Origin: Escherichia coli
GTDB lineage: Bacteria; Pseudomonadota; Gammaproteobacteria; Enterobacterales; Enterobacteriaceae
NCBI RefSeq assembly: GCF_041248615.1
Contig: NZ_CP158426.1
Length of the DNA: 64,000 nt
Reading direction: 5' to 3' (one strand)
Below are positions 4,574 to 4,597 of the stretch, one piece after another; the stretch's first letter is position 1; every line of letters starts with the position of its first letter. The notes beneath the pieces were generated by a model. It did no database searches and had not been told where the DNA came from. It saw only the letters and a program-made list of their open reading frames with translations. The position numbers were made by a program, and so were the translations under genes.

Positions 4574-4597
4574 ACTTTAGTTACAACATACTTTATT
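4574..4597 (-). other. TerB replication-terminus (Tus-binding) site in the tus promoter region
   Basis: Plus strand ACTTTAGTTACAACATACTTTATT contains reverse complement of the Ter core GTTGTAACTA(AAGT); located 10 bp upstream of tus start as expected for TerB. Confidence 0.75.

Follow-up and report, generated by a model that had tools for sequence, protein, structure and literature searches.

The rstB-tus locus and its surroundings

The window, i.e., the whole stretch of 64,000 nucleotides of Escherichia coli DNA analysed here (contig NZ_CP158426.1), contains near its start the genes tus and rstB and, in the spacer between them, a Ter site that overlaps the putative tus promoter. The gene order manA-fumA (annotated fumB)-fumC-tus-rstB-rstA-ydgC-folM and onward is that of the K-12 terminus region in reverse. 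The fumC-tus-rstB-rstA synteny is identical to that of K-12, and TerB lies between rstB and tus in both. Over its first 20 kb, the window shows 100% identity to the genome of E. coli NRZ14408 (NZ_LT599825.1, 2,627,672-2,647,671). Genome coordinates are given on that record, in which the window corresponds to 2,627,672-2,691,671, and the features of the locus are presented in Table 1 in window coordinates.

Table 1. Features of the rstB-tus locus, in window coordinates.
Feature	Coordinates	Strand	Description
tus	3634..4563	minus	Terminus site-binding protein, 309 aa (open reading frame, Pfam, RefSeq annotation)
TerB 23-mer, core-anchored	4574..4596	minus	ATAAAGTATGTTGTAACTAAAGT; Ter position 1 at 4596, position 23 at 4574
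Conserved Ter core, positions 8-19	4578..4589	minus	ATGTTGTAACTA; invariant in all alleles compared
C(6)	4591	plus	Cytosine taken up by the Tus pocket on locking; pairs with minus-strand G6
AAA run, Ter positions 5-3	4592..4594	minus	AA in K-12; site of the one-base insertion
Putative extended -10, TGcTATAAA	4597..4605	minus	TG at 4605-4604, hexamer at 4602-4597; abuts Ter position 1
Putative weak -35, TGGTCA (4/6)	4620..4625	minus	17 nt upstream of the -10
rstB	4640..5941	minus	Upstream neighbour of tus; the 76-nt rstB-tus spacer holds the putative promoter and TerB

The tus open reading frame matches the Pfam family Ter (PF05472) with an E-value of 3.6e-137, and its product is identical to the crystallised Tus (PDB 1ECR, 2EWJ and 2I06) at 302 of 309 residues (97.7%). 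Residues I79, F140, H144 and G149, which we take to form the C6 pocket (the list reportedly goes back to Mulcair et al. in 2006), are the same as in K-12, as is R198 alongside them. The predicted product of the gene beside TerB is a cognate Tus whose C6-pocket residues are intact.

Elsewhere in the window, rspB, ydfJ and ydfI are contiguous at about 34,908-38,902, and ydfJ is annotated as intact. In K-12, the Qin prophage interrupts ydfJ at the corresponding site, hence the uninterrupted gene indicates a strain without Qin there. A family 1 glycosylhydrolase gene (52,426-54,848) is interrupted by an IS3-family transposase with a programmed frameshift (53,100-54,328), which leaves two pseudogene fragments. 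The split gene ends a cluster with a GntR-type regulator, a cellobiose-type PTS (IIB/IIC/IIA) and a carbohydrate porin, adjoining marRAB. Just downstream of dcp, a short remnant at 43,065-43,145 is annotated as an incomplete 2-oxo-tetronate isomerase pseudogene.

Sequence of the Ter site

The minus-strand reading of positions 4574-4597, taken directly as the reverse complement, is AATAAAGTATGTTGTAACTAAAGT, and the ten nucleotides GGTTAATATT (4573 down to 4564) separate it from the tus start codon. When the 23-mer is anchored on the core, as in Table 1, 21 of its 23 positions are identical to K-12 TerB without gaps. The mismatches fall at outer positions 2 and 3 only, while position 1 and positions 4-23, G/C(6) included, are those of K-12. 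Alternatively, AATAAAGTATGTTGTAACTAAAGT aligns to the K-12 TerB 23-mer AATAAGTATGTTGTAACTAAAGT with 23/23 identities and a one-nucleotide insertion.

The original prediction had claimed a Ter core in the TerB orientation at this place, 10 bp upstream of the tus start. Both claims held: the core has a single exact match, on the minus strand, and the gap ends at an ATG whose open reading frame is Tus by PF05472. As checks, it had proposed an alignment with the published TerB 23-mer and a look at C6. The former gave two mismatches, neither in the core, and the latter found the G/C(6) pair retained, with the cytosine on the plus strand.

Of the features by which a Ter site is recognized, the one at 4574-4597 has the core positions 8-18/19, G/C at position 6 and the trap orientation, and the genome encodes a cognate Tus. 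It also has the location that distinguishes TerB: it is intergenic between rstB and tus, about 10 nt 5' of the tus ATG, and overlaps the putative tus promoter. The site is very probably TerB of Escherichia coli, the 23-bp asymmetric Tus site, in a natural allele carrying one extra A (hereafter +A). TerB itself is long known, and +A falls within the outer-position Ter polymorphism that has already been reported.

Two further occurrences of the 8-mer GTTGTAAC on the plus strand, at 28987-29009 (in ynfE) and 37308-37330 (in ydfJ), were rejected as Ter sites. They differ from TerB at 8 and 11 positions, and in one of them position 6 is A instead of G.

The extra A and TerB polymorphism in E. coli

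In K-12 MG1655, the site begins AATAAGTATG (full context ...GTGCTATAAAATAAGTATGTTGTAACTAAAGTGGTTAATATTATG), with AA where the window has AAA before G6. The published native-context TerB oligonucleotide, which reads ...CTATAAAATAAGTATGTTGTAACTAAAGTGGTTAATATTATGGCGCG, is the same as K-12 (PMC4499146). As a result of the extra A, positions 2-3 read TA instead of AT. The site had been described from the sequence as one A longer than TerB, as either a variant or the result of a mistaken TerB reference. The extra length and the variant stood, with the allele found in 268 of 5,426 genomes, whereas the mistake did not: the TerB reference was correct, and K-12 indeed lacks the A.

Allele frequencies were obtained by matching allele-specific 35-mers against 5,426 complete E. 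coli genomes; for +A, every 28-mer seed spans the insertion. In terms of positions 1-7, the K-12 form AATAAGT is found in 2,360 genomes (43%), AATAAGG in 1,372, ATTAAGG in 1,262, the window's AATAAAGT in 268 (4.9%) and ATAAAGG in 52. Together, these five alleles cover 5,314 of 5,417 genomes in which the region is present, and +A is the only one among them that changes the length. About half of the genomes (1,372 + 1,262 + 52) have G instead of T at position 7. In the 13 strains whose TerB was read, variation is confined to positions 1-4 and 7, G6 is unchanged in all 13 alleles, and positions 8-23 are invariant.

According to PMC8347550, the SNPs of ter sites in E. coli are located in the outer variable region, whose contribution to binding is minor; the same source lists positions 6 and 8-18 as highly conserved. 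In terB, 1-2 SNPs per 23 bp are reported across phylogroups (PMC10331603). The polymorphism seen here agrees with both reports. Although the window's 23-mer is not identical to that of K-12, it is within the reported range of 1-2 SNPs per 23 bp.

The +A allele occurs on at least two flanking (promoter-spacer) haplotypes. The possibility that it is a simple marker of strain lineage was considered and rejected by comparing haplotypes over 2.3 kb of rstB-tus. The nearest ones (99.3% identical) carry ATTAAGG without the extra A, as read in BEC1-S17-ESBL-09 (99.3%) and also in strain 042 (98.5%). In strains 135 and C1, by contrast, the extra A occurs next to a promoter spacer that is quite unlike that of the window.

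The extra A is thus a genuine natural allele and neither an artefact of sequencing nor the product of a wrong reference. Of the several natural alleles, the textbook TerB 23-mer is only one, and the variation among them is confined to the outer positions. This matters for genome scans for Ter sites, given that searches for the exact 23-mer would miss TerB in most strains.

The putative tus promoter

TerB lies in the tus promoter, and Tus represses its own gene by binding there (PMC8707476; PMC8347550). In the window, the promoter elements of Table 1 were read by eye and are putative. A consensus scan for sigma-70 promoters and terminators over 4450-4750 called no promoter and a single weak terminator-like site, inside rstB. 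The element TGCTATAA is kept in 13 of the 13 strains read, the last base of its hexamer being G in strain 22-245 (TATAAG), and TGGTCA is present in most of the TerB-region alleles read. Given that the -10 abuts Ter position 1, the predicted tus transcription start would fall inside the Tus footprint.

The spacer between the -35 and the -10 (4603-4625) exists in two very different haplotypes, GTCAAGTCACCACCACTGTGC in the window and GTCAGGCTGTCGATACTGTGC in strains 135 and C1. Both keep TGcTATAAA and TerB, and the +A TerB is seen with either. At 4610-4627, on the stretch from the rstB stop codon to the tus -10, there is a perfect 6-bp hairpin, GGTGGT-N6-ACCACC, which overlaps the putative -35. 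As it is not followed by a T-run, it is not a canonical terminator. In K-12 this hairpin is imperfect.

Orientation and place in the replication fork trap

The record NZ_LT599825.1 begins at dnaA, on the plus strand, and TerB is found near 2,632,245. TerC, ACATAGAATGTTGTAACTAATAT, lies near 2,694,100 (about 2,694,094-2,694,116), 62 kb beyond TerB and, like it, on the minus strand. An exact dif 28-mer is located at 2,712,482, 80 kb beyond TerB; dif was also sought within the 64-kb window, and none was found there. The window lies in the replication-terminus region, as the original prediction had placed it, and the presence of TerC and dif further along the same record bears this out.

Given this layout of dnaA, TerC and dif, the usual fork would move toward higher coordinates and reach TerB from the tus side, i.e., at the permissive position 23. 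The non-permissive position-1 face is directed toward higher coordinates, where TerC and dif lie. The orientation relative to oriC, which had been put forward as a further check, is the one that a trap requires, with the permissive face toward the oriC-side fork. When the window is divided into 16 bins of 4 kb, 15 of them show a positive plus-strand GC skew, as expected of a replichore in which the fork reaches TerB at its permissive face. Further along the record the skew is mixed, one 10-kb interval ahead of dif being negative, and past dif the cumulative curve levels off.

By its position and orientation, TerB would serve as a back-up barrier behind TerC, which is exactly the K-12 arrangement. 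TerB anchors the window in the terminus of the E. coli chromosome, with the canonical trap layout of TerB behind TerC and dif inside. The finding leaves the understanding of Tus-Ter unchanged.

The TerC allele of this strain differs from the K-12 sequence ATATAGGATGTTGTAACTAATAT by T2C and G7A, with the core and G6 intact. Its 35-mer is found in 12 of 5,426 complete E. coli genomes, which makes it much rarer than the +A TerB.

Proposed action of TerB and expected effect of the extra A

Tus bound to TerB is proposed to form a polar barrier. A fork coming from the position-1 side, i.e., from the higher coordinates where dif and TerC lie, would unwind the DNA up to G/C(6), after which C6 would flip into the Tus pocket and lock the complex; a fork coming from the tus side would displace Tus. 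TerB would thereby back up TerC in stopping a fork that has already passed the terminus. Because it adjoins the tus -10, it would also be the operator through which Tus represses tus transcription. The lock mechanism and the autoregulation are taken from the literature, while the sequence, position, orientation, intact Tus and allele frequency come from the present analysis.

In the published work, C6 enters a cytosine pocket of Tus (the "mousetrap") after an earlier step in which a dynamic clamp causes slowing at about positions 3-5 (PMC4499146). Ahead of lock formation, the polymerase is slowed at T(3)-A(5), and C(6) is essential, as mutating G/C(6) abolishes permanent arrest (PMC4499146). 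Published Tus binding and polar fork arrest refer to the K-12 TerB allele only (PMC4499146, PMC8707476).

In the +A allele, Ter positions 4-23 are those of K-12, positions 2-3 are altered, and the operator is displaced 1 bp further from the putative -10. We infer that this allele is fully functional. Since A4-A5-G6-T7 and the whole core are unchanged, no material consequence of the extra A is expected. The T3->A change may have a small effect, given where the polymerase slows.

Alternative explanations

That the site is a chance Ter-like core without any Tus-related function is a reading to which we give no credence. Short degenerate matches are indeed common: although the degenerate Ter 14-mer GNRNGTTGTAACKA matches exactly at the TerB site only, 13 other matches appear in the window when two mismatches are allowed, which is the chance level (14 found against 12.3 expected). 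The exact 10-mer core GTTGTAACTA, however, occurs a single time in the 64-kb window, where 0.05 occurrences are expected; among 100 shuffles, 5 contained a match, one each. When up to three mismatches are allowed, the published TerB 23-mer likewise matches the window once, at the TerB site and with two mismatches, and was absent from all 100 shuffles. A chance match also leaves unexplained why the site stands precisely 10 nt away from tus, placed and oriented like TerB of K-12, and why the 101-bp TerB region is conserved in 5,417 of 5,426 complete E. coli genomes. Almost as little weight is due to the idea that the site is TerB with a homopolymer error of sequencing or assembly, the true sequence being the K-12 23-mer. 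A one-base difference in a run of A (AA against AAA) is a typical place for an indel error, yet the same +A 35-mer is found in 268 independently assembled complete genomes and on two different promoter-spacer haplotypes. In addition, the 2.3-kb rstB-tus segment recurs with 100% identity in another genome, NZ_OW967178.1, which is also virtually identical over 20 kb (listed at 100.0%, with a slightly lower bit score).

It is also conceivable, though highly improbable, that the site is TerB but that the extra A makes it functionally different, through a weaker or altered pre-lock "dynamic clamp" owing to the change at positions 2-3, or through altered tus autorepression owing to the 1-bp shift of the operator away from the -10. 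In that case, lineages with +A would have a changed Tus level or a leakier barrier. The fact that +A is the sole length change among the five common alleles speaks for such a difference, as do the slowing of the replisome at positions 3-5 before locking (PMC4499146) and the rare TerC allele of the same strain (12 of 5,426 genomes). Against it stand the lack of any change from position 4 to position 23, a stretch that takes in A5-G6-T7 and the entire core, and the persistence of the allele in 268 genomes of several backgrounds, which argues against a strong defect. Moreover, the DNA strand in the crystal structure of the locked complex (2EWJ) reportedly extends only to position 5. The outer positions also contribute little to binding (PMC8347550). 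There is a slim chance, hardly greater than that of the preceding alternative, that the +A TerB together with the rare TerC T2C/G7A retunes Tus abundance or barrier strength in some lineages. If so, the two alleles would represent natural variation in the stringency of the fork trap.

Comparison with known systems

The closest known counterpart is TerB of K-12 MG1655, upstream of tus (b1610), which shares with the window site the rstB-TerB-tus-fumC locus, the strand on which it lies with respect to tus and the 10 nt that separate it from the ATG. It is identical at positions 1 and 4-23 and is followed by the same downstream sequence, GGTTAATATTATG. In comparison with K-12, the window presents AAA instead of AA, an rstB-tus spacer of 76 nt instead of 75 nt, two substitutions in the promoter spacer besides the extra A, and seven Tus substitutions (I23A, H116R, K119Q, A221T, N225D, H253Y and G270S), which lie away from the DNA-lock residues. 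The other TerB alleles (AATAAGG, ATTAAGG, ATAAAGG and GTTAAGG at positions 1-7) share G6, positions 8-23 and the 10-nt gap to tus with the window allele. They differ by substitutions, T7->G among them in most cases, whereas in the window allele T7 is retained and the difference is one of length.

TerC has its core, strand and polarity in common with TerB. It differs in its outer positions, in its 3' end (..CTAATAT) and in having no association with tus. For the fork that TerB would stop, TerC is the innermost barrier, and it lies 62 kb closer to dif. In the type I traps of Edwardsiella tarda and Cedecea neteri, Ter1 likewise lies 5' of the tus ATG, acts as both barrier and operator, and conserves C(6) (PMC8707476). 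This tus-proximal Ter1 is, however, the innermost barrier of its trap (PMC8707476), whereas in the type II trap of E. coli TerB is secondary to TerC (PMC10331603).
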